From the NCBI GenBank assembly GCA_017651185.1, contig JAGCDJ010000043.1, forward strand, positions 6,555-70,554: a stretch of 64,000 bases of DNA, read 5' to 3'. Each line of letters starts with the position of its first letter. The first letter of the stretch is position 1. This document shows, in pieces, positions 1 to 17,931 of the stretch. A model generated the notes under the pieces. It made no database searches and was not told the origin of the DNA. It worked only from the letters and a program-made list of their open reading frames with translations. Source of the DNA: Bacteroidales bacterium (lineage in GTDB: Bacteria; Bacteroidota; Bacteroidia; Bacteroidales; ML635J-15). Both the position numbers and the translations under genes were made by a program.

Positions 1-1929
1 ACGGTTGGCGACGATGCCGCCGCAGCAAACTGGGGCAATGGCTGGCGTATGCCTACCAGTGAGCAGTTGCGCGAACTGTACGAGCATTGCATGGTGGTCT
101 GGACGGTGCATAATGGCGTGAACGGACAACTCTTCACAGCCGACAACGGCAAGTCCATATTCATCCCTGCCGCCGGTTTCCGCCACGAGGGTTCGCCAAC
201 CGATGTGGGTTCTGCCGGATTTGTGTGGTCGAGTTCGCTTTATGCTGAACATGCCAGCGAGGCGTGGATTCTCCAAATTACTGCCGACGATTGCGGTTTG
301 GTCGACGAAAGCAGATACGAAGGGCTTGCTGTCCGCCCTGTAATTGCCAGTGGCACTGATAACCCCGATAACCCTGATAACCCAGACGACCCCGATAATC
401 CAGACGACCCCGACAATCCTGCAACTACGGTTACCGTTACCTTCAATGCCAATGGCGGCAGTGGCACTATGTCTCCGCAGACGTTTACGGTTGGCGAGCC
501 GCAGCAACTGACTTCGAATAGTTTTGTTCGTGAAAATTATGTGTTTACGGGATGGAACACAACGGCAACAGGTACAGGCACTGCCTATTCCAACGAGCAG
601 GAGATAACAATTTCCGCGAACCTTACTTTGTATGCACAGTGGAGAGCAAATGGTGGCGATAACCCCGAGCCGCCAAGTACGGTTACTGTTACTTTCCACG
701 AAAATGGTGGCACTGGCACTATGTCTCCGCAGACCTTTACCGCCGGGGTAGCACAGGCGTTGGCGGCAAATAGTTTCACTCGCACCGACTATACTTTCGT
801 TGGATGGAATACCTCTGCAAACGGAAGCGGTACCGCGTATTCCGACATGCAGATGATAACTGTTACCTCAAACATGACTTTGTATGCGCAGTGGAGATAC
901 AACCTGGTTACAGTTTCATTTGATTCTAATGGCGGTAGCGGTTATATGTCGCCTCAGACATTTACAATTGGAGTAGTGCAAGCATTGTCAAGTAATAGTT
1001 TTACTCGTGAGGACTATGTTTTCTCAGGATGGAATACTTCGGCGAATGGCTCAGGCACAGCATATTCCGACGGACAGGTGATAATGGTTTCTGCGAATAT
1101 AACATTGTATGCACAGTGGACACTTACAACTGTTAGGGTAACATTCAATGCCAATGGCGGTAGCGGAAATATGTCTCCTCAGACGTTTACTGTTGGTGTG
1201 GCGCAACAATTGACGGCAAATAGTTTTACCCGCGATGATTATGTCTTCTTGGGATGGAACACCTCTGCAAACGGAAGTGGAACTTCGTATTCAGACAGAC
1301 AGTCGATAACAATTTCTGCTAATCTGATCTTGTATGCGCAGTGGAGAGGTACAACAGGCACATTGAACGGACATGTATGGGTTGACCTTGGTTTGCCTTC
1401 TGGCACAAAGTGGGCAACTTGCAATGTAGGAGCGACAAATCCAGAAGATTACGGGAATAAATATGCATGGGGAGAAACCAGTCCCAAAGAAACTTATACA
1501 GCCGCCAATTATACATATTCTGACAATCCGACAACGCTTCCAGCAAGTGCCGATGCTGCCACAGTCAACTGGGGTTCTGGTTGGAGAATGCCGACCTATG
1601 ATGAGATTCTAGAACTGTTTCAAAATTGTGTGTATTGGTGGACTACTGAAAATGGAGTCTACGGAATGTATTTTGTAGGTAATAATGGGAATTCAATTTT
1701 TCTCCCTGGTAATGGTTCTTTTGTGTCTTCAATTTCAATGCCTTTGGGTGGAACTTTTGCAGGTTCATTTTGGTCAAGTTCGTTTTATTCTATTGATGAT
1801 GCATGGGTGATTAGCATAATAGATGAGGCATCGGTTGGTTCTATTGGTTATAATACTGGTTTATGTAACGGAGTTTATAAGATACCTCGCATAAAAGGTC
1901 TGACCGTTCGTCCTGTTTGCAATCAGTAG
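1..1929 (+). CDS. 5'-truncated modular surface protein: DUF1566/Fib_succ_major-like domain, (DNP)n linker, 4 Listeria-Bacteroides (InlB B-type) repeats, C-terminal DUF1566-like domain
   Basis: Frame is open from base 1 (TVGDDAAAANWGNGWRMPT). Four repeats of VTFxxNGGxGxMSPQTF..GWNT..LYAQW. Terminal domain GHVWVDLGLPSGTKWATCNVGA...WSSS...VRPVCNQ. Confidence 0.85.
   Translation, partial: TVGDDAAAANWGNGWRMPTSEQLRELYEHCMVVWTVHNGVNGQLFTADNGKSIFIPAAGFRHEGSPTDVGSAGFVWSSSLYAEHASEAWILQITADDCGLVDESRYEGLAVRPVIASGTDNPDNPDNPDDPDNPDDPDNPATTVTVTFNANGGSGTMSPQTFTVGEPQQLTSNSFVRENYVFTGWNTTATGTGTAYSNEQEITISANLTLYAQWRANGGDNPEPPSTVTVTFHENGGTGTMSPQTFTAGVAQALAANSFTRTDYTFVGWNTSANGSGTAYSDMQMITVTSNMTLYAQWRYNLVTVSFDSNGGSGYMSPQTFTIGVVQALSSNSFTREDYVFSGWNTSANGSGTAYSDGQVIMVSANITLYAQWTLTTVRVTFNANGGSGNMSPQTFTVGVAQQLTANSFTRDDYVFLGWNTSANGSGTSYSDRQSITISANLILYAQWRGTTGTLNGHVWVDLGLPSGTKWATCNVGATNPEDYGNKYAWGETSPKETYTAANYTYSDNPTTLPASADAATVNWGSGWRMPTYDEILELFQNCVYWWTTENGVYGMYFVGNNGNSIFLPGNGSFVSSISMPLGGTFAGSFWSSSFYSIDDAWVISIIDEASVGSIGYNTGLCNGVYKIPRIKGLTVRPVCNQ
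358..420 (+). repeat. 7 x 9-bp in-frame tandem repeat encoding DNP/DDP linker
   Basis: gataacccc gataaccct gataaccca gacgacccc gataatcca gacgacccc gacaatcct. Confidence 0.9.
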
Positions 1930-1962
1930 CGAAATGTATAATAGCAATTTAAATAACTATAT

Positions 1963-4173
1963 ATGAACAGACTAAGATTTTTTGTGTTCGCTCTCGTATT
2001 AATGGCGGGAGCATTGGCAATGAGCGGTTGCGACAAGGACAAGCAACCCCAAGTAAATACTATTGCTGCAACCGACATATCAACAACCTCGGCAAAACTT
2101 AACGCCGAGATTATAGACGAGGGTAGCGAGAAGGTTACCAACATGGGTTTCTATTACAGTACCGACAAGGAAATGGGCAACAAGCAGACCGTTCGCTACA
2201 ACGGCTATGCTAACGGAGGAAAGTTTTCAACGTTCGCTTCCAATTTACAACCGGCAACAACCTATTATTTCCAAGCATTTGCCGAAAACGGAAATGGCAT
2301 CGGCGTGGGCGAAATTATGTCGTTTGCAACTACCAACGATGCACAGGGCGGCGGTTCGTCGGGCGGAGAACCCTCTGGCGGAGATACTCCGGCGCCTACG
2401 CAGGGACAACTGAACGGACATGCTTGGGTTGACTTGGGTTTGCCGTCGGGAACACGCTGGGCATCCTGCAACATGGGCGCAAACGCACCAGAACAGTACG
2501 GCGACTATTACGCTTGGGGCGAAACCGCAACCAAGGAAGTTTATGACGCCACTACATATACCTATTCCGACAATCCCGAAACCCTGCCCGCAAGCGCCGA
2601 TGCTGCATCGGTAGGTTGGGGTAGCGACTGGCGTATGCCTACACGCGAGGAGTTTCAGGAATTGCTCGATAATTGTACTCATACTTGGGCACTTAGGTAC
2701 GGAGTAAAGGGATGTATGTTTACCGGCACAAACGGAAATTTCATATTCTTGCCTGCGTCAGGTTCTCGCCTCGATGGTGACCTTAACTTCGACGGTACAA
2801 ATGGTTGGTACAGGTCAAGTTCTCTCTACGCCGACTATACTTATTGCGCTTGGAGTCTTTATTTCAGTTCTGAATCATGCGTAATGTCAAGTTCGGGTAG
2901 CCGTGCCGAAGGTCAGGCAATTCGTCCTGTATATCGTCCCGACATTCCCCCTGCAACGGTTACCGTTACCTTCAATGCAAACGGCGGTAGCGGAACTATG
3001 GAACCGCAGACGTTTACAGTTGGCGTGGCACAGCAATTGAATGCCAATGGTTTTACACGCAGCGGTTATTCGTTCTCGGGTTGGAACACCTCAGCCGATG
3101 GAACGGGAACTGCCTACTCCAACAGGCAGGAGATAACGGTTTCTGCAAATCTCACCTTGTATGCGCAGTGGACAGCCAATCCGGTTACGGTTACCTTCAA
3201 TGCAAATGGCGGTAGCGGAACAATGTCGCCGCAAACATTCACCGTTGGCGTGGCTCAGCAATTGACTGCCAATAGTTTTACGCGCAGCGGATATTCGTTC
3301 TCGGGTTGGAATACTTCTGCCAACGGAAGCGGAACTTCGTATTCCGACAGGCAGTCGATAACGATTTCCGCAGACATTACCTTGTATGCACAGTGGACAT
3401 CCAATACTGTTACGGTTACTTTCAATGCCAACGGCGGTAGCGGAACAATGTCGCCGCAAACATTTACCATCGGTGTCGCCCAAGCATTGACGGCAAATAG
3501 TTTTACACGTACCGACTATGTATTTTCGGGGTGGAACACCGCAGCTAATGGAAGCGGAACTTCGTATTCCGACAGGCAGTCGATAACAATTTCCTCTAAT
3601 CTTACCTTGTATGCGCAATGGCGAGGAACAACCGGCACGTTGGACGGACACGACTGGGTTGACCTTGGACTTCCAAGCGGAATGAGATGGGCGACCTGCA
3701 ACTTAGGCGCTGATAGTCCTACCGCATACGGCAACTATTACGCTTGGGGCGAAACCTCGCCGAAAACTACATACAACAGCAGTACCTATACATATAATGA
3801 CAATCCAACTACGCTTCCTTCGAGTGCCGATGCTGCCACTGCCAACTGGGGTTCTAACTGGCGTATGCCGACCAAAACCGAATTTGAAGAACTGAAGAAC
3901 AATTGCGCGGTGACATGGACTACGCAAAGCGGTGTGAGTGGATTGTTATTTACTGGTACTAACGGCAATTCTATTTTCCTTCCAGCTGTTGGCGATAGTG
4001 GTGATAGCGGCATCTACACTCCCGGTGCAAGCGGCAATTACTGGTCTAGTTCGAACTTTACGTCCATGCCTGAATATGTATGGAGTTTCGGTTTCTTGTC
4101 GGACGGAACATACGATGTGTATATGGGTTCCCGCTATAACGGTTTTGCTGTCCGTGCGGTTTGCAACCAGTAG
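1963..4173 (+). CDS. Lipoprotein: FN3-like domain, DUF1566-like domain, 3 Listeria-Bacteroides repeats, C-terminal DUF1566-like domain
   Basis: Lipobox AMSGC; FN3-like NLQPATTYYFQAFAEN; two WVDLGLPSG domains; ends VRAVCNQ like the upstream paralog. Confidence 0.85.
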   Translation: MNRLRFFVFALVLMAGALAMSGCDKDKQPQVNTIAATDISTTSAKLNAEIIDEGSEKVTNMGFYYSTDKEMGNKQTVRYNGYANGGKFSTFASNLQPATTYYFQAFAENGNGIGVGEIMSFATTNDAQGGGSSGGEPSGGDTPAPTQGQLNGHAWVDLGLPSGTRWASCNMGANAPEQYGDYYAWGETATKEVYDATTYTYSDNPETLPASADAASVGWGSDWRMPTREEFQELLDNCTHTWALRYGVKGCMFTGTNGNFIFLPASGSRLDGDLNFDGTNGWYRSSSLYADYTYCAWSLYFSSESCVMSSSGSRAEGQAIRPVYRPDIPPATVTVTFNANGGSGTMEPQTFTVGVAQQLNANGFTRSGYSFSGWNTSADGTGTAYSNRQEITVSANLTLYAQWTANPVTVTFNANGGSGTMSPQTFTVGVAQQLTANSFTRSGYSFSGWNTSANGSGTSYSDRQSITISADITLYAQWTSNTVTVTFNANGGSGTMSPQTFTIGVAQALTANSFTRTDYVFSGWNTAANGSGTSYSDRQSITISSNLTLYAQWRGTTGTLDGHDWVDLGLPSGMRWATCNLGADSPTAYGNYYAWGETSPKTTYNSSTYTYNDNPTTLPSSADAATANWGSNWRMPTKTEFEELKNNCAVTWTTQSGVSGLLFTGTNGNSIFLPAVGDSGDSGIYTPGASGNYWSSSNFTSMPEYVWSFGFLSDGTYDVYMGSRYNGFAVRAVCNQ

Positions 4174-4617: not shown

Positions 4618-6012
4618 ATGGACGAAAAATTTAAAAATTTCATTGATAGAGAAAAACTCTATAACTTGGTAAACGGTAGCATTCCTACCGAACAGGAACT
4701 CGATGCAGTGCTTGCAAAGGCTCGCAAACTGAAAGGCTTGTCGCTCGAAGATGTGGCATTGCTTCTTCGTGTTACCGACCATGACCAGATACATAAGATA
4801 ATGGAGACGGCTAAGTACGCCAAGGAAAGCATCTATGGCAAGCGTCTCGTTCTGTTTGCACCTATTTATACTGGTAATGTATGCGTGAACAACTGCGTAT
4901 ATTGCGCTTTCCGCCGCGATAACAAGGCCATCAAGCGTAAAGTCCTCACCATGGACGAAATCGAGCAGGAAACCAAGGTTCTGCTTCACGAAGGTCACAA
5001 GCGTGTACTGCTTATCTGCGGTGAGTCGCCACGCAACGACATCGACTACTACTGCGAAGCAATCCGCCGTACCTACGCTGCACGCGACAACGGCAACTAC
5101 ATCCGCCGTATCAATGTCGAACTTGCTCCGTTGACAATCGAAGAATTCAAGCGCTTGAAAGCAGAGAAAATTGGAACATACGTTTGCTTCCAGGAAACTT
5201 ACGACCCGGTTGCTTACAAGGAATTCCACCCGGCAGGCACACCAAAGGCCGACTACCTCAACCGTCTGACCGTTATGGACCGCGCTATGGAAGGCGGAAT
5301 CAACGATGTTGGTCTTGGAGTTCTCTTCGGTCTTGTTGACTATCGTTTCGAAATTTTGGCAATAATGGAACACGCCGCTCACTTGGAGAAAGTTTTCGGT
5401 TGCGGACCTCATACAGTAAGTTTCCCGCGTATCGAACCTGCCGACGGCGTAGAATTCACCAACCATATTCCAAATCCGGTTTCCGATTTCGACTTCAAGA
5501 AGATTATCGCAATTATCCGTATAGCAATGCCTTATACTGGTATTATCCTCAGCACACGCGAAAACGATGAGATGCGTAAGGAGCTTATCGAGTACGGTGT
5601 AAGCCAGATTTCGGCAGGTTCGCGTACCAACCCAGGCGCATATAGCGAAGAGGAAGAAGGTACTGGCAGCCAGTTCTCGCTTGGCGACCACAGAACTATG
5701 GACGATGTGATTTCCAATATGATTGACGGCGGATATATTCCTTCGTTCTGCACAGGTTGCTACCGTAAGGGTAGAGTAGGAGCCGACTTTATGGACTTGG
5801 CAAAGCCGGGACTTATCAAGCAGTTCTGCATGCCTAATGGAATTTTCACCTTCAACGAATACCTCAACGATTTTGCATCACCCGAAACAAAGGCAAAAGG
5901 CAAGGCTTTGATAAAGAAGCTTGTCGCTGAAGTTGAAAGCCAGAAACTGAAAGACACCATCAACGAAAACCTTGAAAAAATTGATGGCGGCGAAAGAGAC
6001 ATTTATCTGTAA
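4618..6012 (+). CDS. hydG: [FeFe]-hydrogenase H-cluster radical SAM maturase HydG
   Basis: CxxxCxxC (CVNNCVYC), FQETY, GPHTVS, and C-terminal CX2CX22C (CTGC...C), which separates HydG from ThiH. Confidence 0.9.
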   Translation: MDEKFKNFIDREKLYNLVNGSIPTEQELDAVLAKARKLKGLSLEDVALLLRVTDHDQIHKIMETAKYAKESIYGKRLVLFAPIYTGNVCVNNCVYCAFRRDNKAIKRKVLTMDEIEQETKVLLHEGHKRVLLICGESPRNDIDYYCEAIRRTYAARDNGNYIRRINVELAPLTIEEFKRLKAEKIGTYVCFQETYDPVAYKEFHPAGTPKADYLNRLTVMDRAMEGGINDVGLGVLFGLVDYRFEILAIMEHAAHLEKVFGCGPHTVSFPRIEPADGVEFTNHIPNPVSDFDFKKIIAIIRIAMPYTGIILSTRENDEMRKELIEYGVSQISAGSRTNPGAYSEEEEGTGSQFSLGDHRTMDDVISNMIDGGYIPSFCTGCYRKGRVGADFMDLAKPGLIKQFCMPNGIFTFNEYLNDFASPETKAKGKALIKKLVAEVESQKLKDTINENLEKIDGGERDIYL

Positions 6013-8131: not shown

Positions 8132-8139
8132 TAATTTTG
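8132..8139 (+). promoter_or_regulatory. Bacteroidota -7 promoter element for the 8227-17871 operon
   Basis: TAATTTTG matches TAnnTTTG, about 90 nt upstream of the ATG. Confidence 0.55.
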
Positions 8140-8226
8140 CACGACTTTTTGCAGATGTTACGGGGTTCTTCATTTGCACAAAGTCAGATTGATTTTAAAT
8201 AAATTAGCGAACCCAACATATTGTTT

Positions 8227-9489
8227 ATGAAAGACATATTTGAAAGAATTCACGAGTCTTCGGGCGGTCCGCTCGGACAGTACAGAGAAAAATTTGAGGG
8301 ATATTACACATTTCCGAAATTGGAAGGTGAAATTGGTCCTCACATGATGTTCAACGGCAGGGAAGTTTTGTGCTGGAGTTTGAACAATTATCTTGGTTTG
8401 GCAAATCATCCTGCAGTTCGCAAGGCCGATGCCGATGGCGCTGCTAAGTGGGGTTTGGCTTATCCTATGGGTAGCCGTATGCTTACAGGTCACACTGCTT
8501 TGCACGAAAAACTTGAACGCGAACTCGCTGACTTCGAAAAGAAGGAAGCTGCTTTCCAGATGAACTTTGGTTATCAGGGTATAGTTTCTGTAATCGACAG
8601 CCTTATGACTCGTCACGATGTCATAGTTTTCGATGCTGAGGCACACGCTTGTCTGCTCGATGGAAAACGCTTGCATATTGGTAAGTCGTTCTCGTACAAG
8701 CACAACGATATAGAGAGCTGCGAAAAGAAATTGCAGGTTGCTTGCAAAATTGCCGATGAACAGGGTGGCGGCGTATTGCTTATTACCGAAGGCGTTTACG
8801 GTATGACCGGCGCTCTTGGTATTCTCGACCAGATTGTTGCCTTGAAGAAGAAATACAATTTCCGTATCCTTATTGACGATGCTCACGGCTTTGGCGTTAT
8901 GGGCGAACACGGACGCGGTACTTCGGAGCACTTCAACGTAATGGACGACATCGACATTTACATTGGCGCTTACGCAAAATCAATGGCTTGTATCGGTGGT
9001 TTCGTTGCATCAAAGAAGTATATCATTGATTTCCTACGCTACAACATGCGTTCACAGATTTACGCAAAGGCACTTCCGATGCCAATAGTTGAAGGCTGCT
9101 TGAAGCGTCTCGAAATCATTCGCAGTGCCGAAGGTGATGAACTCCGCAAGAAATTGTGGACTGTAACCCGTCGTCTGCAGGAAGGTTTCCGCAACCTCGG
9201 ATTCACTATCGGTCCAGCAGAGGCATGTGTAACACCAGTTCATATTAAGGGTGGCGTAAATCAGGCAGTTAATATGGCATACGACCTGCGTGAAAACTAC
9301 AGAATTTTCTGTTCAATAGTAACTTATCCTGTAATTCCTGTCGGAATGATTATTTTCCGTATTATCCCGACCGCTGTTCACAGCATCGAGGATGTTGACT
9401 ATACTTTGAATGCATTCAAGGAAATAAAGGAAAAACTTGAAAGTGGTAAGTATGATGCACCTGCTCCAATGATTAATTTCTCAAAGTAG
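8227..9489 (+). CDS. PLP-dependent alpha-oxoamine synthase; probable cysteate-C-fatty acyltransferase (SulA/CapB type)
   Basis: NNYLGL, DDAHG, PLP lysine in YAKS (K251 from ATG 8227); YNMRSQIYAKALPMP places a lysine at 281, where serine palmitoyltransferases have FSAS. Confidence 0.8.
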   Translation: MKDIFERIHESSGGPLGQYREKFEGYYTFPKLEGEIGPHMMFNGREVLCWSLNNYLGLANHPAVRKADADGAAKWGLAYPMGSRMLTGHTALHEKLERELADFEKKEAAFQMNFGYQGIVSVIDSLMTRHDVIVFDAEAHACLLDGKRLHIGKSFSYKHNDIESCEKKLQVACKIADEQGGGVLLITEGVYGMTGALGILDQIVALKKKYNFRILIDDAHGFGVMGEHGRGTSEHFNVMDDIDIYIGAYAKSMACIGGFVASKKYIIDFLRYNMRSQIYAKALPMPIVEGCLKRLEIIRSAEGDELRKKLWTVTRRLQEGFRNLGFTIGPAEACVTPVHIKGGVNQAVNMAYDLRENYRIFCSIVTYPVIPVGMIIFRIIPTAVHSIEDVDYTLNAFKEIKEKLESGKYDAPAPMINFSK

Positions 9490-9577
9490 GGCAGATGTTA
9501 GAGTAATTGAAATAATAAAATACGGGGAAAAGTGTTCGGATTCCGAATGCTTTTCCTGCTTTAAAAGCATTAAGACT

Positions 9578-10798
9578 ATGAAATACAACCTGATTTGCAA
9601 AAAGTGTGGCGCTGTAATAAATAATTTCGCAGAATGGTTTGAAAATGACCAACTTTGCCCTAAGTGCGGAAGCAATCATGTGGAGGTAAAATACGATGCC
9701 GACTATTCGAAACTTCCCGCGTTGTACAATGGCAAGCCCGAAAGTTTCTGGCATTACTTCGATTTCTTGCCTCTCGAAGACAAGAAGAATATAGTAAGTT
9801 TTGGCGAAGGCGCTATTCCTGTCGAACACTGGGAGTTTCTCGACCGCGTTGCAAAGGAAAAGTACGGAATCGACTGCAAGGCATACGTTTACCGTAATGA
9901 CCTTAACGGAGGAACCAACACTTTCAAGGACGTTGCTGCTTCTTTGGCCGCTTCGCTTTTCAAGGAGAATGGTGTAAAGGAATATTGTCTTGCATCGAGC
10001 GGAAATACAGCTACTGCATACAGCAAGTATCTGGCTAAGGCAGGCGTTAAGTTCGATATTTTTGTTCCAGAATGCGTTTGCAAGGATACTGCCGACGAGA
10101 TTCGCTCTCTTGGACAGAACTTGGTAGTTTGCGAAGGCGACTACGGCGCAGCCAAGAAAGTTGCCGCTAACTTCCACAAGGAGCAGAAGGTTATGATTTC
10201 GGCAGGTAATATCGACCCGATACGTGTTGAAGCAAAGAAGACTATGGTGTTTGAGTTTATGCGTCAACTTGGCAAGATGCCCGATGTATATGTTCAGGCA
10301 GTTGCTGGAGGAACAGGACCTATTGCACTCGACAAGGGCGTACGTGAGATATGCGACAAGTATCCCGAAGTTAAGTTGCCGCGCATGATTTTGGTTCAGC
10401 AGGACACTTGCGATCCGATGGTTCAGGGTTGGGAGCGTGCCGTAAAGAGCAATTTTGCAGAAGGTTACGAAAAGGATTATCCTGTAATCGACAATCCGCA
10501 GACAAAGGTTTCGATACTTTCGGCTGGAAATCCGGGTATGTACCCGTTGGTGGCTCCGATAGTACGCAAGAGCGACGGTTATTTTGTTCGCGTTAAGGAG
10601 TCGGAACTTGTCGATTATGCAAGTATTGCAAAGGATGAGAAGAACGTTTACTTCGGTCCTGCAGGTGCAGTTTGCTTTGCCGGATTCTACAAGGCGCTCG
10701 AGGAAGGTCGTATCAGAAATGGTGAAACCGTTCTCATAAATACTGGCGAAGGTGCTGCTCGCGCAAAGGATTTCAAGGCCGCTGTTGACAAAAAATAA
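9578..10798 (+). CDS. Threonine-synthase-fold PLP enzyme with N-terminal Zn ribbon; candidate cysteate synthase
   Basis: CKKC...CPKC, TFKD PLP lysine, ASSGNT, AVAGGTG; gene context suggests the function. Confidence 0.65.
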   Translation: MKYNLICKKCGAVINNFAEWFENDQLCPKCGSNHVEVKYDADYSKLPALYNGKPESFWHYFDFLPLEDKKNIVSFGEGAIPVEHWEFLDRVAKEKYGIDCKAYVYRNDLNGGTNTFKDVAASLAASLFKENGVKEYCLASSGNTATAYSKYLAKAGVKFDIFVPECVCKDTADEIRSLGQNLVVCEGDYGAAKKVAANFHKEQKVMISAGNIDPIRVEAKKTMVFEFMRQLGKMPDVYVQAVAGGTGPIALDKGVREICDKYPEVKLPRMILVQQDTCDPMVQGWERAVKSNFAEGYEKDYPVIDNPQTKVSILSAGNPGMYPLVAPIVRKSDGYFVRVKESELVDYASIAKDEKNVYFGPAGAVCFAGFYKALEEGRIRNGETVLINTGEGAARAKDFKAAVDKK

Positions 10799-10828
10799 AA
10801 ACGAATCAAAATGTTACATTTAGGGACC

Positions 10829-10989
10829 GTCATTCCACAAGTCAGAACATACTCGCGATACGGAACGGGGAGCGTTGTAATGTTCGACTATGCGGAATCT
10901 CCTATGGAACCGTTTTCAGATGGAGATTCCGTACAGACAGGCTCACAAGGCTCGAACCTGCGCCTGTTCGCTTTGTCTTACGGAATGAC
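10829..10989. repeat. CGTC-type REP-like nested palindrome
   Basis: GTCATTCC (10829) pairs with GGAATGAC (10982-10989); inner TGCGGAATCTCC / GGAGATTCCGTA. Confidence 0.7.
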
Positions 10990-11003
10990 ACTATTGTAGT
11001 CGT

Positions 11004-11807
11004 ATGAAACCTCGTTTTGCTGGCAAAATAGTATGGATAACTGGTGCTTCGTCGGGAATAGGCGAGGCAACTGCCTACCGCATGTCTGCCGAAGGCGCAA
11101 GTCTTATTCTGACTTCGCGTAACGAATCGGCGCTTGCGTCGGTGCGTGAAAGGTGCATTGCCAGTGGCGCACCAAAGGCGGAGGTTTTACCAGCAGATTT
11201 GTCGCAACTTGAAAATCTGGAAAAACTGGCAGAATCGGCATGGTCGCTTTTCGGAAAGATTGACATTTTCTTCTGTAATGCTGGCATCAGTCAGCGGTCG
11301 AATACCATCGATTCGCAGATGGAGGTGATTGACAAGGTGATGGATGTCAACTATTTTGCTCCAGTTACAATCACAAAGGCGTTGCTTCCGAAGATGATTG
11401 CTGCTGGTGGTGGACAGATTGCCGTTACTACAAGCATTGCAGGAAAATTCGGTTTTCCGCTGCGTTGCGCCTATAGCTCGTCAAAGTTCGCTCTGTATGG
11501 CTTTTTCGAGACGGTGCAGGCCGAGTGCTATAAGGACGGCATACGTGTTACTTTTGTTTGTCCGGGTCGTGTTCAGACCAACATTTCGCTCTATGCACTC
11601 GAAAAGGACGGCACTCCGCACGGCAAGATGGACGCTGGTCAGGCTGGTGGAATAACATCGGAGATGGCGGCACGTAAGATTGCAAATGCCATTTATAGGA
11701 AAAAACGCGAAGTGCTTGTCGGTGGCAAGGAACTGCTTATGGTACATATCAAAAGGTGGTTCCCGGGTCTGGCGGCAAGGATTGCAAGGAATATAAAGGC
11801 GATGTAA
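11004..11807 (+). CDS. Short-chain dehydrogenase/reductase; candidate 3-ketocapnine reductase (CapC-like)
   Basis: TGASSGIG, CNAG, YSSSK; context next to the acyltransferase and cysteate synthase candidates. Confidence 0.75.
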   Translation: MKPRFAGKIVWITGASSGIGEATAYRMSAEGASLILTSRNESALASVRERCIASGAPKAEVLPADLSQLENLEKLAESAWSLFGKIDIFFCNAGISQRSNTIDSQMEVIDKVMDVNYFAPVTITKALLPKMIAAGGGQIAVTTSIAGKFGFPLRCAYSSSKFALYGFFETVQAECYKDGIRVTFVCPGRVQTNISLYALEKDGTPHGKMDAGQAGGITSEMAARKIANAIYRKKREVLVGGKELLMVHIKRWFPGLAARIARNIKAM

Positions 11808-11893
11808 AATTATAATTGACAATTAATAATGGAAAATTTTTTTTAATTTAATCATCAAATTTTCAAATTATCAAATTTTTGAATAATTAGCAA

Positions 11894-12964
11894 ATGGAAA
11901 ATTACTTTATATCTGGAATACAGCAGGTTGGCGTAGGAACAGAAAATTTCCACGAATCGTGGAAGTGGTATATCAAGATGTTTGGAATGGATGTCAAGAT
12001 TTTGGAGGACGACACAGTTGCCGAGCGAATGCTTCCTTATACAGGCAATCAGCCACAGAAGCGCCACGCCTGTATTGCAATAAATCTTCAAGGTGGTGGC
12101 GGATTCGAAATCTGGCAGTATTCGCAGCGTAAGCCAGAACCGATAGGCTTTGATGTGCAGGTTGCCGACCTCGGTATTTTTGCCGCCAAGATTAAGAGCC
12201 GCAATGTAAAGGCATACCACGATGAGTTGAAGGCTAAGTACGACAAGATTAGCGATGTTGCCAAGACTCCCGAAGGAAAGGACACTTTCATCGTTAAGGA
12301 TCCGTGGAACAACTATTTCCAAGTTGTTGAGGACGACTATGTTTTCATCGATGAAAAGCGTTTGTCGGGTGGTACGGTTGGTGCTATGATTGGCGTTACC
12401 GACGTAGAACGTGCATTGTCGGTTTACCGCGATGTGCTTGGTTACGATACGGTTGTTTACGATGAGACTGGCGTTTTCGATGACTTTGCATTTATGAATG
12501 GCGGAAACCAGAAGTACCGTCGTGTATTGCTTAGGTCGTCGCGTAAGCCAAAGGGTGCTTTTGCCGAACTTATGGGTAGTAGCAGCATTGAACTTGTCGT
12601 AGCATTGGAGCGCCAGCCGAGAAAGATTTTTGAAGGCCGCTATTGGGGTGACCCTGGTTTCATTCAGTTGTGCTTCGATATTACCAATATGCAGGAATTG
12701 AGGAAGTTCTGCGAATCAAAGGGGTTCCCGTTCACAGTTGACAGTTGTCCGAACAACGAGCGTTTCGATATGGGCGAGGCAAGCGGACATTTTACCTACA
12801 TCGAAGACCCCGATGGCACTTTGATAGAATTTGTTGAAACACATAAGATTCCCGTAATGAAGAAATTGGGCTGGAATATAAATATGCTCAAGCGCAACCG
12901 CGAAAAGCCGTTGCCAAGGTTCCTGTTCAAGGTTATGGGAATGTTTAAAGTAAAATTGGATTAA
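11894..12964 (+). CDS. Two-domain VOC (glyoxalase/epimerase-like) protein
   Basis: GIQQVGVG, FEIWQ, KDPWNNYFQVVE, GFIQLCF, EDPDGTLIEFVE. Confidence 0.8.
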   Translation: MENYFISGIQQVGVGTENFHESWKWYIKMFGMDVKILEDDTVAERMLPYTGNQPQKRHACIAINLQGGGGFEIWQYSQRKPEPIGFDVQVADLGIFAAKIKSRNVKAYHDELKAKYDKISDVAKTPEGKDTFIVKDPWNNYFQVVEDDYVFIDEKRLSGGTVGAMIGVTDVERALSVYRDVLGYDTVVYDETGVFDDFAFMNGGNQKYRRVLLRSSRKPKGAFAELMGSSSIELVVALERQPRKIFEGRYWGDPGFIQLCFDITNMQELRKFCESKGFPFTVDSCPNNERFDMGEASGHFTYIEDPDGTLIEFVETHKIPVMKKLGWNINMLKRNREKPLPRFLFKVMGMFKVKLD

Positions 12965-12965
12965 T

Positions 12966-13571
12966 ATGGGAAACTTATATGACCTATTGATGCAGGATGC
13001 GCGTTTTGAGGATGCACTCAAAGCATGCATGAACTGCGGAATATGCACGGCAATATGTCCCGCTGCCGAGTTTTTCCAGTACGACCCGCGCCGAATCTGC
13101 GATATTGTTCAGCGCAAGGACGAAAACGAGATTGAGGCATTGCTGCGTTCAGATATGATTTGGCATTGCGGTCAGTGCCTGTCGTGCAAGACACGCTGTC
13201 CGCGACAGAATGTCCCTGCCGAAGTGATACTTGTGCTTAGGCAAGTCGCCATTAAACTCGGCTATATGGACGAGCGTATTGCCGAGCAGGAAAAGCGTCT
13301 GGCAGAGACTGTTGGAAACAATATACTTGAAATAGGATATTGCGTACATCCCGACAAGGTAAAACCCGAACTTCATCAGGAGCAAGGACCTATTTGGGAG
13401 TGGTATATAAATAACATAGAGGCGGTAGCACCAAAACTTGGCGCCAATTATCATGGCGACGGTCCTGGCGCATTGCGCAAGATACGCGAGGAAAACCTTC
13501 AGGAAGTCAGAAAGATTTTCGAGGTTACCGGCGGTATGGACTTGTTGAAAACATTGAAGGAGGAAAAATGA
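12966..13571 (+). CDS. HdrC-like 2x[4Fe-4S] subunit (sHdrC1-like)
   Basis: CMNCGICTAICP and IWHCGQCLSCKTRCP. Confidence 0.8.
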   Translation: MGNLYDLLMQDARFEDALKACMNCGICTAICPAAEFFQYDPRRICDIVQRKDENEIEALLRSDMIWHCGQCLSCKTRCPRQNVPAEVILVLRQVAIKLGYMDERIAEQEKRLAETVGNNILEIGYCVHPDKVKPELHQEQGPIWEWYINNIEAVAPKLGANYHGDGPGALRKIREENLQEVRKIFEVTGGMDLLKTLKEEK

Positions 13572-13903
13572 GAAAGTTCGGTTTTTCAATATCGCAGACA
13601 AGGTCAATAGATTTGGACCAGATTGACTTTAGTTGCCTCGACGAACTGCGCGAAGCAGTTCCTACATTCATGGTATGCATCAATTGTGGTGCATGTACTG
13701 CAACATGTTCGGCTCAGCAGTTTTCAGATTTTAACATCCGCAAGATAAAGACTATGCTTATGCAAGGACAGTACGAAGGACTTGCAAAACAACTCGATAA
13801 ATGCATGCTTTGCGGAAAGTGCACATTGGTATGTCCGCGTGAAGTAAATCTTAGGAATTCGATTGTAAACATGCGGAGAATATTAACGAAAAAGAATAAG
13901 TGA
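13568..13903 (+). CDS. Small HdrC-like 2x[4Fe-4S] dicluster protein
   Basis: CINCGACTATCS and CMLCGKCTLVCP; overlaps both neighbours. Confidence 0.8.
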   Translation: MRKFGFSISQTRSIDLDQIDFSCLDELREAVPTFMVCINCGACTATCSAQQFSDFNIRKIKTMLMQGQYEGLAKQLDKCMLCGKCTLVCPREVNLRNSIVNMRRILTKKNK

Positions 13904-15687
13904 TGATGAAATATTTCAGTCCGTTTGTACTTCCGTTCGTTCTTGGTGCCTTTGTACTGCTTGGAATATGTGTTTTCAAGTACATCAGATGGTACAGGAG
14001 TTTCGATAGGGTACAACGTTCAAAGGTAAAGAAGAATATTCTTTCGTTGAAATTCCTTCCTGCAATATGGGAGGCGATTTTGGAATGTCTGTTCCATCGT
14101 AAGGTTTTCAGGCGCAACCTTGTTTTGGGTTACATGCATTGTAGTATTGCTTTCGGGTGGTTTTTGCTGATAGTTGTAGGTGCCATAGAAGCCGAGGTTT
14201 GTATTCATGGTTCAAAGCCATTTTGGGTGGCAATATTTTATAGGTTCTTTGTGCATCAGCACGATACGCAGACAAGCATAGTCTTTGCAAACATAATGGA
14301 TGCACTGCTTCTGGTTGTACTTTCGGGTGTAACGCTTGCTGTTATAAAGATGGTGTACTCGAAGATTGTGGGAATGCGCAGGGTGACCAAGCATGTACTG
14401 TTCGACCGTTTTGCAAAGTTCTCGCTGTGGTTCATTTTCCCGTTGCGACTTTTGGCTGAAAGTTATACGGCTGCATATTACGGCAACGGTGGATTTATGA
14501 CACAGGCATTAGGTAATTTGTTTGCTCCTATTTATCACGAATATGTTGAAATGGGATTGTGGACAATGTACTCCATCTGTCTGGCTGTGTTCTTTGTTTC
14601 GTTGCCATTTTCGCGTTACATGCACATTTTTACCGAAGTTTTCCTTATTTTCTTCCGCCGTATGGGTGTTACCGAAGGCGACGAAAAGACTGGCTATACG
14701 ATGTACGAACTTAGCGCTTGCTCGCGTTGCGGTATTTGTATCGACAACTGCCCGATGGACAAGCAACTTGGCGTACAAGGTGTGCAGTCGGTTTATTTAC
14801 TTCGCGATGTTCGTTACAAGCGTGGAACAGAGGAGGTTGCAAACCAGTGCCTTATGTGTCAGCGTTGTTCGTCAGATTGTCCTGTTGGTCTAGACCTTAT
14901 GACAATTCGCCGTCAGGTAAGAAATAAGGAAACTAACCTTGATGCTTCTGGATATTACAGTTATGCTGATAACATTCAGGCATTCAATTCGGTAGGACGA
15001 GTTTTGTATTTCGGCGGATGCATGTCGCATCTTACGCCTGGCATTACCGAAGCCATGATGAAGATTTTCGATGCTGTTGACCAGAAATACTGGTATATGG
15101 ACAAGGACAGGACTATTTGCTGTGGTCGTCCGTTGTTGCAGCAGGGATTTTTGAAGCAGGCAAAGGACTTGCGTCTTAAGAATCAGAGCATGATAATCAA
15201 GTCGAAGGCAAAACTGCTTGTAACATCGTGTCCGATATGCTACCAGTCGTTTACAAAGGAGTATAACCTGCCGATAAAGGTTATGCATCACACCGAATAC
15301 ATCGAAGGTCTGATAAGGTCGGGCAGGTTGAAGTTGCGCAAGGACGACCTTAAGGTTGTTTACCACGATCCGTGCGAACTTGGTCGCGGATGCGGAATAT
15401 ACAACGAGCCACGCGAGGTTTTGAAGTCTGTTTCAACCTTGGTTAAGGCGAAGTACGAAAAGGAAAAGAGCCTTTGCTGTGGTTTCAATCTTGGTAGTAC
15501 AGTGCTGACAATGGACCAGCAGACCAAGGTGCGCGATGCAGCGGTGGAAAGTCTTATGGATAAGAATCCTGACTTGATTGCAACAGCCTGCCCGATGTGC
15601 AAGAAGGCGTTTAATCACGCGACAACATTGCAGGTGAAGGATGTCGCTGAGATTGTAGCGGAAAACATTATAAAAGTTGAAAGTTGA
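13903..15687 (+). CDS. Membrane-anchored Fe-S oxidoreductase (NarI/HdrE-like TM region, 2x[4Fe-4S], two CCG domains; HdrD/GlpC-like)
   Basis: Hydrophobic N-terminal helices with His (GYMH, RYMH); CSRCGICIDNCP, CLMCQRCSSDCP; ICCG..CPIC and HDPC..LCCG..CPMC. Confidence 0.8.
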   Translation: MMKYFSPFVLPFVLGAFVLLGICVFKYIRWYRSFDRVQRSKVKKNILSLKFLPAIWEAILECLFHRKVFRRNLVLGYMHCSIAFGWFLLIVVGAIEAEVCIHGSKPFWVAIFYRFFVHQHDTQTSIVFANIMDALLLVVLSGVTLAVIKMVYSKIVGMRRVTKHVLFDRFAKFSLWFIFPLRLLAESYTAAYYGNGGFMTQALGNLFAPIYHEYVEMGLWTMYSICLAVFFVSLPFSRYMHIFTEVFLIFFRRMGVTEGDEKTGYTMYELSACSRCGICIDNCPMDKQLGVQGVQSVYLLRDVRYKRGTEEVANQCLMCQRCSSDCPVGLDLMTIRRQVRNKETNLDASGYYSYADNIQAFNSVGRVLYFGGCMSHLTPGITEAMMKIFDAVDQKYWYMDKDRTICCGRPLLQQGFLKQAKDLRLKNQSMIIKSKAKLLVTSCPICYQSFTKEYNLPIKVMHHTEYIEGLIRSGRLKLRKDDLKVVYHDPCELGRGCGIYNEPREVLKSVSTLVKAKYEKEKSLCCGFNLGSTVLTMDQQTKVRDAAVESLMDKNPDLIATACPMCKKAFNHATTLQVKDVAEIVAENIIKVES

Positions 15688-15780
15688 AAGTTGAAAATTG
15701 AAATGACGGTTGTAGTCGCGCAATGCTTTGCGCAGAATGGATAAAATAAATTAAGAAAGAATAATTTGAATTCAAATTAT

Positions 15781-16848
15781 ATGGACGAATCAAAAAATAG
15801 AAGATATTGGAACGAATACCAGAAGGAAATTGCCGATGACAAGTTCTTCTACGAGCGCAGTTGCATCAGACAGACTTTTTTCCCTGGGTCGGAAACGGCT
15901 TTCCTGAAAATTATGCGTGAGGAGTTAGGCAAGGACATTCGCGACGAGGCCAACCAGCATACTTGCACGGGTATTGGCTATCATTCCGATATAGTTCCTA
16001 TGGAAACAACAATGACGGTTGTAGCACGCTTGTTTTCGCTTATGACCGATGCGGGTTACGAAAACTATGTGCCTTCGTGCGTTACTTCGTTCGGTATTTT
16101 TACCGAAATGGTTGAAATGTGGAAGGAGCATCCCGAACTTCTCGAAAAGACACGCAAGTACCTGAAGGAAGCCACAGGTCGCGATTTTGAGGCACCTAAA
16201 AATATTGCTCACCCATCCGACATCATATACAAGTATCGTTTCGAGTTGAAGGAAAAGATGAAATATCAACTTGTGAACCGTTTTACGGGCAAGCCGTTGC
16301 GCGTAGTGGAGCATATAGGTTGCCATTATGCCAAGATTTTCCCTGAAAAGGGTATTGGAAAGGCAGAATTTCCATACGTTCTCGCAGGAATGATAGAAGC
16401 GTGGGGTGGCGAGGTTGTTGATTATCCTGAGCGCCGTCATTGCTGTGGATTTGGATTCCGTCACTATCTGTTGCAGGAAAACCGTGGCTATTCTGTGGCT
16501 AACACCAAGAAAAAGTTCGAGTCGATGGAACCGTTTGAGCCTGATTTCATTGTCGCTAACTGTCCCGGTTGCGCTATGTTTATGGACAAATGGCAATATA
16601 CGATAGCCGAGATGGAAAACAAGACTTACGACAAGGACGGATATGGTATTCCAGTGCTAACCTACGAGGAAATGGCGGGAATGTTGCTCGGCTACGACCC
16701 GTGGAAACTCGGAATGCAGTTGCATCAGGTACAGGTTGAAAATCTGCTCGACAAGATAGGCATTCCGTACAAGCCAAACGAAAAATATCGCGGTGCAAAT
16801 GGAGAAATCCTTCCTTCGCCCGAAAAACCAATGAATTTAAAAGTGTAA
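15781..16848 (+). CDS. HdrB-like CCG-domain subunit (sHdrB1-like)
   Basis: Degenerate first CCG domain (QHTCTG, SCVTSFG); intact second domain (HIGCHY, CCGFGFRH, NCPGC). Confidence 0.8.
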   Translation: MDESKNRRYWNEYQKEIADDKFFYERSCIRQTFFPGSETAFLKIMREELGKDIRDEANQHTCTGIGYHSDIVPMETTMTVVARLFSLMTDAGYENYVPSCVTSFGIFTEMVEMWKEHPELLEKTRKYLKEATGRDFEAPKNIAHPSDIIYKYRFELKEKMKYQLVNRFTGKPLRVVEHIGCHYAKIFPEKGIGKAEFPYVLAGMIEAWGGEVVDYPERRHCCGFGFRHYLLQENRGYSVANTKKKFESMEPFEPDFIVANCPGCAMFMDKWQYTIAEMENKTYDKDGYGIPVLTYEEMAGMLLGYDPWKLGMQLHQVQVENLLDKIGIPYKPNEKYRGANGEILPSPEKPMNLKV

Positions 16849-16863
16849 TGTAAAATATTAGAT

Positions 16864-17871
16864 ATGAGTAAGATTGCTATAATAGGAGCCGGACCTGCCG
16901 GTATTGAAAGTGCATCGATGCTTGCAAGAAACCATGAGGTGCTGTTATTCGAAAAGTCATCGACAGCATTATCCAACATACTCGACAAGGCATATCTGTT
17001 CCCCGATTTTTCAAGTGCTACCGATATTGCCGACAGTTTGAATTCGAAACTTATAAATGAGAATATAAAGTTGATGCTTAATACCGAAGTCGTTGATGTT
17101 GTAAGAAACGATTCGGAATGGAAGATAGTTGACGCGTCAGGAAAGAACTATTTTGTTGATGCAGTGCTTATCACAACTGGTTACCAGACCTTTGACGCTA
17201 CGCGCAAGGAAGAACTTGGATATGGCATATACAAGGGCGTAGTTACTTCCATAGATATGGAAAGAATGATAAGGTACAACCAGATTGTGAACTCGATAAA
17301 CGAAGCACCGAAGCGTATTGTTTTCCTGCAGTGTGTAGGTTCGCGTGACGAAAAGTCTGGCAACCGCTATTGCTCCAAGGTTTGCTGTGTGACGGCTGTA
17401 AAACAGGCAATAGAAGTGCGTAAGATGCTTCCCGAAGCCGAAATATACATTTTCTATATGGACTTGCGCATGTGGGGACAGCATTTCGAGGAACTTTACC
17501 GTGAATCTCAGGAAAAGTATGACATCCGCTATGTGCGTGGACGTATTTCTGAGGCATCATCCACTTTCGACCGTAAGATACAGATAAAGGCGGAAGACAC
17601 TTTGCTCGGTGTTCCTCTGAAGATGACCACCGACTTGCTTGTACTGATGGTTGGTATGGAAGCATCGTCTGGAACAAAGTCGCTTGGTTGCAAGTGCGGA
17701 ATAGGGGGCGAGTATGGTTTCGTCAAGACGGCAACTCCGCATCTTTGCGACAACGAAACCTCCGAGAAGGGACTGTTTGTTGCAGGTTCGTGCAAGCGAC
17801 CAATGACAATCAACGATGTCATTAACGATGCAAGGTCGGCGGCGTGTGTTATTGGCGAATACTTAAGGTAA
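16864..17871 (+). CDS. Short HdrA-like FAD/[4Fe-4S] subunit (sHdrA-like)
   Basis: GAGPAG, CVGSRDEKSGNRYCSKVCC, FYMDLR, GLFVAGSC; 335 aa with no ferredoxin insertions. Confidence 0.8.
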   Translation: MSKIAIIGAGPAGIESASMLARNHEVLLFEKSSTALSNILDKAYLFPDFSSATDIADSLNSKLINENIKLMLNTEVVDVVRNDSEWKIVDASGKNYFVDAVLITTGYQTFDATRKEELGYGIYKGVVTSIDMERMIRYNQIVNSINEAPKRIVFLQCVGSRDEKSGNRYCSKVCCVTAVKQAIEVRKMLPEAEIYIFYMDLRMWGQHFEELYRESQEKYDIRYVRGRISEASSTFDRKIQIKAEDTLLGVPLKMTTDLLVLMVGMEASSGTKSLGCKCGIGGEYGFVKTATPHLCDNETSEKGLFVAGSCKRPMTINDVINDARSAACVIGEYLR

Positions 17872-17897
17872 ATATATATTTAGACATAATGAAAAAA

Positions 17898-17931
17898 TAA
17901 GCGGGAATGATTTCATTCCCGCTTACTTTTT
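17898..17931. terminator. Bidirectional intrinsic terminator closing the operon
   Basis: TAAGCGGGAATGA-TT-TCATTCCCGCTTA between convergent genes. Confidence 0.75.

Follow-up and report, generated by a model that had tools for sequence, protein, structure and literature searches.

A sulfonolipid gene set adjoining an Hdr-like redox module in Bacteroidales: a candidate anaerobic sulfite supply for capnine synthesis

The stretch of DNA analysed here (the window) comprises 64,000 nucleotides of a rumen Bacteroidales bacterium (assembly GCA_017651185.1, contig JAGCDJ010000043.1, positions 6,555 to 70,554) and carries a unit of nine co-directional open reading frames (ORFs) on the + strand, spanning 8227-17871. 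The first three genes are assigned to capnine (sulfonolipid) synthesis, the fourth encodes a VOC-fold protein, and the last five encode a heterodisulfide reductase (Hdr)-like module that may supply the sulfite for this synthesis. A candidate Bacteroidota-type -7 promoter motif, TAATTTTG, lies upstream of the first gene (8132..8139, + strand), and the unit is closed by a bidirectional intrinsic-terminator-like hairpin (17892..17931) with an 18-pair stem containing 6 GC pairs and with T runs on both strands. TAATTTTG is the sole intergenic + strand TAnnTTTG of the unit; four others are intragenic (10057, 11549, 12175 and 13608), and none was found in the four larger intergenic gaps, which measure 88 nt (first and second gene), 205 nt (second and third), 86 nt (third and fourth) and 78 nt (seventh and eighth). 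Since the window's 74 occurrences of TAnnTTTG exceed the 58.5 expected only slightly (a count of 74 being reached in 2 of 100 shuffles), a single promoter for the nine genes is a reasonable inference rather than a result. An earlier reading made from the sequence alone had described nine co-directional genes between one such intergenic motif and one strong terminator, and the ORF calls, the motif search and the hairpin bear this out.

The remaining junctions are tight and lie where that sequence-only reading had placed them: the VOC gene ends at 12964 and the next gene starts at 12966, the fifth and sixth genes overlap by 4 nt (13568-13571), the sixth and seventh overlap at 13900-13903, and the eighth ends at 16848 with the ninth starting at 16864. 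The gene spacing suggests co-transcription of all nine genes, and the single nucleotide between the fourth and fifth genes, together with the overlaps joining the fifth, sixth and seventh, fits translational coupling. No riboswitch was seen, an Rfam scan of the whole window giving 0 matches at the gathering score. A 62-aa ORF in the gap between the second and third genes (10811-10999) was dropped, as it is conserved no further than the nearest relative.

Capnine synthesis proceeds from O-phosphoserine and sulfite to cysteate, followed by acyl condensation and keto reduction, according to two reports (PMC13692747, PMC11211663). The first gene (8227..9489, ATG start, with an alternative TTG at 8221) is identified by its closeness to solved enzymes as a cysteate fatty-acyltransferase (SulA/CapB/CFAT): its product scores 580 bits against 7u7h, which appears in the SulA paper (PMC9304779), and 554 bits against 28eh, titled 'Cysteate-C-fatty acyltransferase', compared to 209 bits against serine palmitoyltransferase (SPT). 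By bit score it is therefore nearer to the characterised cysteate acyltransferases than to serine palmitoyltransferases, and against the NCBIfam CFB-type SPT model it reaches 280 bits, the cut-off being 640. In the alignment it has a lysine at the position of SulA Lys281 (chain residue 301, with the pyridoxal phosphate (PLP)-binding Lys251 at chain residue 271), and this lysine is specific to SulA, with alanine at the same position in bacterial Spt (PMC9304779).

The product of the second gene (9578..10798) is a PLP enzyme of the threonine-synthase fold with an N-terminal zinc ribbon (PALP, 2.6e-43 in a profile search). It matches the cysteate_syn model TIGR03844 at 2.4e-35 and 122 bits, below the cut-off of 324.9; we take this model to be built on archaeal sequences, and for that reason its cut-off is a weak test here. 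The protein is only 23% identical to the ThrC-like protein of the related locus L003, a presumed but unconfirmed ThrC, and relatives encode a homologue of it plus a paralogue of about 25% identity that is taken as ThrC. It is thus set apart from the presumed housekeeping ThrC and is encoded together with CFAT. The database names of its relatives are generic ('pyridoxal-phosphate dependent enzyme', 'threonine synthase'), and its assignment as a candidate CapA-type cysteate synthase draws on gene context. The ThrC-like gene of L003 itself adjoins the module; being 24% identical to CapA, it was taken as an ordinary threonine synthase (unconfirmed). When the same L003 protein was used as a tblastn query against the window's genome, the second gene alone was recovered, at 23% identity; a separate search likewise gave a single match, and this organism may be without a housekeeping threonine synthase.

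The third gene (11004..11807) encodes a classical short-chain dehydrogenase/reductase (SDR; adh_short 4.8e-50) that accompanies CapA in related loci and is a candidate 3-ketocapnine reductase (CapC/KCR). By the bit scores of the first product and the domain calls of the other two, these genes match the known capnine gene set, as had been proposed.

The fourth gene (11894..12964) encodes a two-domain VOC/glyoxalase-fold protein by domain call. Its predicted model has a pLDDT (predicted local distance difference test) of 90, with generic two-domain VOC proteins as Foldseek matches, and by our own reading of the sequence its C-terminal tail is basic and amphipathic. The search for a specific function in the Atlas and among folds returned generic VOC relatives alone. 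Its distribution was followed in an order-level sample of 401 Bacteroidales genomes, all at least 90% complete and many of them metagenome-assembled genomes (MAGs), in which CapA was called at E <= 1e-60, CFAT at E <= 1e-100 and the Hdr-like module by its HdrB-like gene at E <= 1e-40. The VOC protein is found in 54 of the 69 CapA-bearing genomes vs 77 of the 332 without CapA, and looks like an unrecognised member of sulfonolipid loci. It accompanies the CapA-type synthase in the window (11894-12964) and in the related loci L009, L012, L020, L045 and L055, and several genomes without the module encode it no more than about 7 kb away from CapA.

The last five genes encode the Hdr-like module, consisting of two HdrC-like ferredoxins, an EtfD-like membrane subunit, an HdrB-like subunit and a short HdrA. 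The labels given earlier to all nine genes, from alpha-oxoamine synthase to short HdrA-like, agree with the domain calls. None of the NCBIfam Hdr models comes near its cut-off on the module proteins. HdrC1 (12966..13571) is a dicluster ferredoxin matching hetero_SS_HdrC at 4.2e-30, below the cut-off, and HdrC2 (13568..13903) is a smaller dicluster ferredoxin by domain calls. The membrane subunit, starting at 13900 (GTG) or 13903 (ATG) and ending at 15687, combines in one chain an N-terminal helical membrane domain, a pair of [4Fe-4S] motifs and two CCG domains, both complete. H66, H80 and H242 of the membrane domain and all CCG cysteines are invariant over 33 sequences. The top Foldseek match of its predicted model (pLDDT 89.5) is Mycobacterium smegmatis EtfD (9ojn; E 2.1e-21, TM score 0.73, whole chain), also matched by phmmer at 2.3e-16. 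Architecture and predicted fold thus point to an EtfD/EMO-like membrane oxidoreductase subunit.

The HdrB-like subunit, starting at 15766 (TTG) or 15781 (ATG) and ending at 16848, has a complete, canonical C-terminal CCG site in which C186, C226, C227, C266 and C269 are invariant. Its N-terminal site (residues 33-108) retains three of the five cysteines (C33, C67 and C105), the other cysteines of methanogen HdrB being replaced by T66 and S108. Both replacements are invariant in all 11 aligned sequences, and the site looks like a conserved altered site rather than a product of decay. The short HdrA-like Fe-S flavoprotein (16864..17871, 335 aa) has the sHdrA architecture: residues 2-328 align to residues 2-334 of the 349-aa sHdrA 6tjr (E 5.4e-52), a full-length match. 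Methanogen HdrA matches over residues 95-330 only, and over that part scores at least as well as 6tjr.

A close known counterpart of the module is the sHdr system of sulfur oxidisers, which occurs as type I (shdrC1B1AHC2B2) and type II (shdrC1B1AH-B3-etfAB-emo), EMO being proposed to hand electrons to menaquinone in the latter (PMC11094781). As in sHdr, a C1, B and A core is clustered, and two HdrC proteins, an HdrB-like protein, a short HdrA and a second double-CCG subunit are present; the common module order C1-B-A-C2-(B2-like) resembles type I, and the menaquinone-type membrane oxidoreductase inside the cluster resembles type II. C2 is present as in type I, but here an EMO/EtfD-like membrane domain and the B2-like double-CCG part form a single chain, and in contrast to type II no EtfAB is found among the recurrent neighbours of the module (no genome-wide EtfAB search was made). 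The module looks like a hybrid of the two types. sHdr systems are always accompanied by sulfur transferases and LbpA, and sHdrH is required in the cluster (PMC11094781). The module loci have no sHdrH and no extra ORF between HdrA and HdrC2, no LbpA, TusA or DsrE was found in the window's genome, the HdrB-like subunit has an altered N-terminal cluster site, and the module resides in a fermentative anaerobe of the gut or rumen; Bacteroidota hosts are unmentioned in the main text on sHdr systems (PMC11094781). Of the sHdr-like complex proposed by the sequence-only reading, the subunit set, the short HdrA and the quinone-type membrane subunit stand, while the sulfur carriers, LbpA and sHdrH are lacking, and by its gene content the module does not qualify as a canonical sHdr system.

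The membrane subunit agrees with mycobacterial EtfD/EMO in whole-chain fold, membrane helices, dicluster domain and two CCG domains, but the alignment identity is 16%, the mycobacterial chain is longer, and the subunit always follows HdrC2 within an Hdr-like module with no EtfAB seen beside it. Methanogenic HdrABC has homologous HdrB, HdrC and the flavin/Fe-S core of HdrA, but the module HdrA is without the N-terminal and ferredoxin domains (335 vs about 650 aa), and the module includes a membrane subunit but lacks a partner hydrogenase or formate dehydrogenase. QmoABC/DsrMK likewise combine an HdrA-like flavoprotein and HdrC-like ferredoxins with a membrane quinone-type subunit, and weak matches to the NCBIfam QmoC and DsrK models are obtained; however, the scores are far under the cut-offs, there is no AprAB/DsrAB context, and PF01077 is unmatched in the window's genome. 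With respect to the capnine/sulfobacin pathway (CapA, CapB = SulA = CFAT, CapC/KCR), the first three genes agree in identity, and what differs is that VOC and Hdr-like genes adjoin them. In the literature searched, supplements not covered, no description of a Bacteroidales Hdr-like module and no mention of such genes adjoining the pathway was found, and the coupling appears to be undescribed, as the sequence-only reading had supposed.

The module is widespread. It is present in 147 of the 401 genomes, its HdrB-like protein being 60-99% identical among the matches listed (21 unlisted), and the closest database records are MAGs of uncultured Bacteroidales from rumen and gut. The five genes are free-standing in most families, in the order C1-B-A-C2-M, where M is the EtfD-like membrane subunit, and the expectation that the module is dedicated to the sulfonolipid operon does not hold. 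The window's clade has the order C1-C2-M-B-A with VOC ahead. The Cap genes are joined to the module in at least five arrangements: CFAT-CapA-SDR-VOC-C1-C2-M-B-A; VOC-C1-C2-M-B-A followed by SDR, CapA and CFAT on the opposite strand; VOC-C1-C2-M-B-A-CFAT-CapA; CFAT-CapA-C1-B-A-C2-M; and C1-B-A-C2-M-CFAT-CapA-SDR-VOC. Among 90 loci, biased towards the window's relatives, the only non-module families found in more than 15 are VOC (25), SDR (22), CFAT (21) and CapA (19), the next being TatC (15). In all five genomes with a VOC-Hdr unit whose flank has no Cap gene, CapA is encoded elsewhere. Within the same genus, HdrB-like and CapA genes are both present in 19 of 24 relatives, and G007 (99% complete) and G010 (100% complete) are without either; G010 is also without VOC and CFAT.

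Reduced and duplicated forms of the module also occur (L021, L023, L029, L038, L044, L059, L022, L017, L004). The reduced forms comprise an HdrB-like gene alone, HdrB-HdrA pairs, C1-B pairs and C1-C2-M-B without A; L017 has a tandem C1-B duplication, and L004 has an additional C1-B pair with a metallo-beta-lactamase-fold protein after it. In three loci from records titled Oscillospiraceae or Clostridia (L031, L035, L057) the module shares 78-79% identity with that of Bacteroidales; these are probably mis-binned or mislabelled contigs. The neighbours of the free-standing modules gave no functional clue: they include peptidase S46, PdxA, MscS, a tRNA methyltransferase and DUF3108, as well as proteins with type IX secretion system tails, TatC, a carboxylase subunit and an ECF sigma factor.

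The sequence-only reading had proposed that the Hdr-like genes go together with sulfonolipid genes, and the outcome depends on the gene that is taken as marker. The module is not tied to the CapA-type synthase: 27 module-bearing genomes have CapA and 120 do not, against 42 and 212 of the module-free genomes, and the 27 joint occurrences compare with 25.3 expected (p 0.68). It is tied to CFAT, the committed enzyme, which is present in 145 of the 147 module-bearing genomes (144 of the 146 tested plus the window's own; absent from G195 and G363) vs 83 of the 127 module-free genomes tested, which are every other one of 254 (odds ratio 38). The module is thus nested almost completely within CFAT-bearing genomes. 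Most CFAT-free genomes fall in families that are wholly without the module, so there are fewer independent events than genomes. In mixed families, G010 (f1), G275 (f7), G290 (f34) and G377 (f45) have neither module nor CFAT, and G195 (f45) has the module without CFAT.

A second pattern concerns sulfate assimilation. The sequence-only reading had seen no sulfate activation genes in the window, and this extends to the whole genome, which is 99.4% complete and in which the CysD/CysH family (PF01507), ATP sulfurylase (PF01747) and sulfite reductase (PF01077) are all unmatched. The anticorrelation it had anticipated with the family of the phosphoadenylyl sulfate (PAPS) reductase is seen among the 69 CapA-bearing genomes, the module being present in 15 of 18 without a strong PF01507 match vs 12 of 51 with one (odds ratio 16); counted by family, the figures are 8 of 10 vs 7 of 25 (odds ratio 10). 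No such trend is seen among the 332 CapA-free genomes (28/89 vs 92/243, odds ratio 0.75). Among CFAT-bearing genomes, a strong match is missing in 43 of 145 with the module vs 8 of 83 without it (odds ratio about 4). These tallies were counted by hand, with an arbitrary cut of E 1e-20 for a strong match, which is immaterial in the CapA-bearing set because all weak PF01507 matches there have E > 1e-5. The window's genome further encodes two single-domain rhodaneses with sub-threshold GlpE/PspE-type similarity, unlinked to the operon, and a serC gene (440 bits, above cut-off) for phosphoserine transaminase, the product of which, O-phosphoserine, is the co-substrate of CapA. The rhodanese pair lies divergently beside serC (G000:C3:247315-249762, equivalent to L103:6316-8763).

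The coupling of the sulfonolipid genes to the module is real and conserved in a clade. Two phyletic patterns support it, the nesting in CFAT-bearing genomes and the complementarity with PF01507, and a generic redox role predicts neither. The best-supported reading, to which we give a probability of roughly 45%, is that the Hdr-like module supplies sulfite (or oxidised sulfur) from reduced sulfur for sulfonolipid synthesis. From the gene content we infer the formation of a complex, its substrate and product, and the direction of electron flow. The five subunits would form a menaquinone-linked complex oxidising cytoplasmic reduced sulfur, for instance a persulfide derived from cysteine or sulfide, to sulfite, with the short HdrA flavoprotein and the HdrC ferredoxins relaying the electrons to the EtfD-like membrane subunit, which would hand them to menaquinone. 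The CapA-type synthase would capture this sulfite, combining it with O-phosphoserine to yield cysteate, which the SulA/CapB-type enzyme would condense with an acyl thioester. The SDR would then reduce the 3-keto product, with the VOC-fold protein accompanying the pathway genes, and sulfonolipids could be made in an anaerobe that has no sulfate activation. Still more tentatively, the module may be a lipoate- and TusA/DsrE-independent, menaquinone-linked biosynthetic Hdr-type enzyme, found in about one third of Bacteroidales species, that anaerobically makes the sulfite of sulfonolipids (or the sulfonate directly) in place of sulfate activation.

Several observations weigh against sulfite supply. 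The window's genome gave no match to TusA (PF01206) or DsrE (PF02635), and no dedicated LbpA was found: its single GcvH-family protein scores above the glycine-cleavage GcvH equivalog cut-offs and is encoded in a housekeeping context, beside pgk and coaX-type genes. Two noncubane clusters are a criterion for sHdr B1, and the HdrB-like subunit has one of its two sites altered. The free-standing modules have unrelated housekeeping neighbours, and 120 of the 147 module-bearing genomes are without a CapA-type synthase, so that sulfite would need another acceptor there. The combination of module and CFAT without CapA is seen in five out of five MAGs titled Alistipes (two), Odoribacter, Butyricimonas and Rikenellaceae. 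CapA is also absent from 64 of the 83 CFAT-bearing genomes that have no module, so that many genomes must draw cysteate from elsewhere and neither gene is required. A strong PF01507 match is found in 102 of the 145 CFAT-bearing genomes with the module, and PF01507 is itself a coarse marker covering CysD, CysH and other members. Furthermore, the co-occurrence counts treat related genomes as units, though these are not independent.

In the main alternative the module serves anaerobic Bacteroidales generally, as a menaquinone-linked complex for thiol/disulfide chemistry or electron input, and has no specific role in sulfonolipid synthesis. It would reduce or oxidise a low-molecular-weight disulfide or persulfide, or feed electrons from NADH or ferredoxin into the quinone pool, and shared regulation or a local shuffling of genes would explain why it adjoins the Cap genes in one clade. 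The free-standing state in most families, the size of the carrier group (147 of 401) with its 120 CapA-free members, the lack of an overall association with CapA and the failure to find TusA or DsrE in the window's genome all agree with such a role, and CCG/HdrB-like and EtfD-like proteins are used by redox enzymes outside sulfur chemistry as well, EtfD and LutA being among the fold matches. However, a general complex accounts neither for the near-complete nesting in CFAT-bearing genomes (145/147 vs 83/127) nor for the persistence of the Cap linkage across at least five rearrangements, the co-loss within the genus and the confinement of the PF01507 complementarity to CapA- or CFAT-bearing genomes, and we regard it as unlikely.

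The prevalence of carriers with CFAT and without CapA, at least 118 module-bearing genomes, would be explained if the complex made the sulfonate directly, oxidising the thiol of cysteine or a derived intermediate to cysteate without free sulfite. The five Alistipes, Odoribacter, Butyricimonas and Rikenellaceae MAGs show this combination, with no cysteate-forming candidate beside CFAT, and the N-terminal site of the HdrB-like subunit, altered yet invariant, hints at a substrate unlike a classical heterodisulfide. We know of no precedent for a six-electron oxidation of a thiol to a sulfonate by an Hdr-type enzyme, which counts against direct formation. In addition, the window's clade wires the module to CapA, a sulfite-consuming enzyme according to one report (PMC13692747), and another source of cysteate must exist anyway, since 64 of the 83 module-free CFAT genomes lack CapA as well; direct sulfonate formation is therefore improbable. 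A search for a cysteate route beside CFAT in these MAGs found none, the neighbours being BamD-like, RpoZ, CoaBC, PyrBI and an SDF transporter. In one Alistipes MAG, CFAT is directly preceded by a gene of the sodium:dicarboxylate symporter family (L098:6919-8112), which could represent an amino-acid or cysteate uptake route.

More improbable still is that the complex acts on the lipid, as an O2-independent dehydrogenase of the sulfonolipid long-chain base or acyl chain passing electrons to menaquinone in the manner of EtfD. The EtfD-like membrane subunit, the nesting in CFAT-bearing genomes and the adjoining VOC protein with its basic, amphipathic tail are in line with this activity, but it leaves the complementarity with the PAPS-reductase family unexplained, the HdrA/B/C triad is typical of sulfur chemistry, and no acyl-CoA dehydrogenase or ETF genes are found among the recurrent neighbours. 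Very improbable is a route in which rhodaneses release sulfite from thiosulfate and the Hdr-like complex works reductively, regenerating the thiol acceptor from its persulfide or disulfide with menaquinol-derived electrons: two single-domain rhodaneses do lie beside serC, the source of the CapA co-substrate, but they are unlinked to the operon, and the family is common, with matches in 13 of 14 control genomes.

No source of sulfite or cysteate in strict anaerobes without sulfate reduction is given in the literature searched. If sulfite supply by the Hdr-like module is correct, the module would be the missing sulfite/cysteate step in such anaerobes and the first biosynthetic role for sHdr-type chemistry. 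It would also link gut or rumen sulfide to a signalling lipid: gut Bacteroidota make sulfonolipids that influence host immunity, TLR4 being one route according to one report (PMC11525784). Independently of the origin of sulfite, an uncharacterised, conserved five-gene Hdr/EtfD-like complex is present in about one third of the sampled genomes, and its near-complete nesting in cysteate-acyltransferase genomes calls for an explanation. The sulfite-supply hypothesis is directly testable in cultivable relatives.

Upstream of the unit, the window encodes two large proteins (626 and 736 aa; 49-4173) with Listeria-Bacteroides repeats and Lcl C-terminal domains, and, on the same strand as the unit, a 464-aa radical SAM protein of HydG, ThiH or BioB type that carries a BATS domain (4618-6012).

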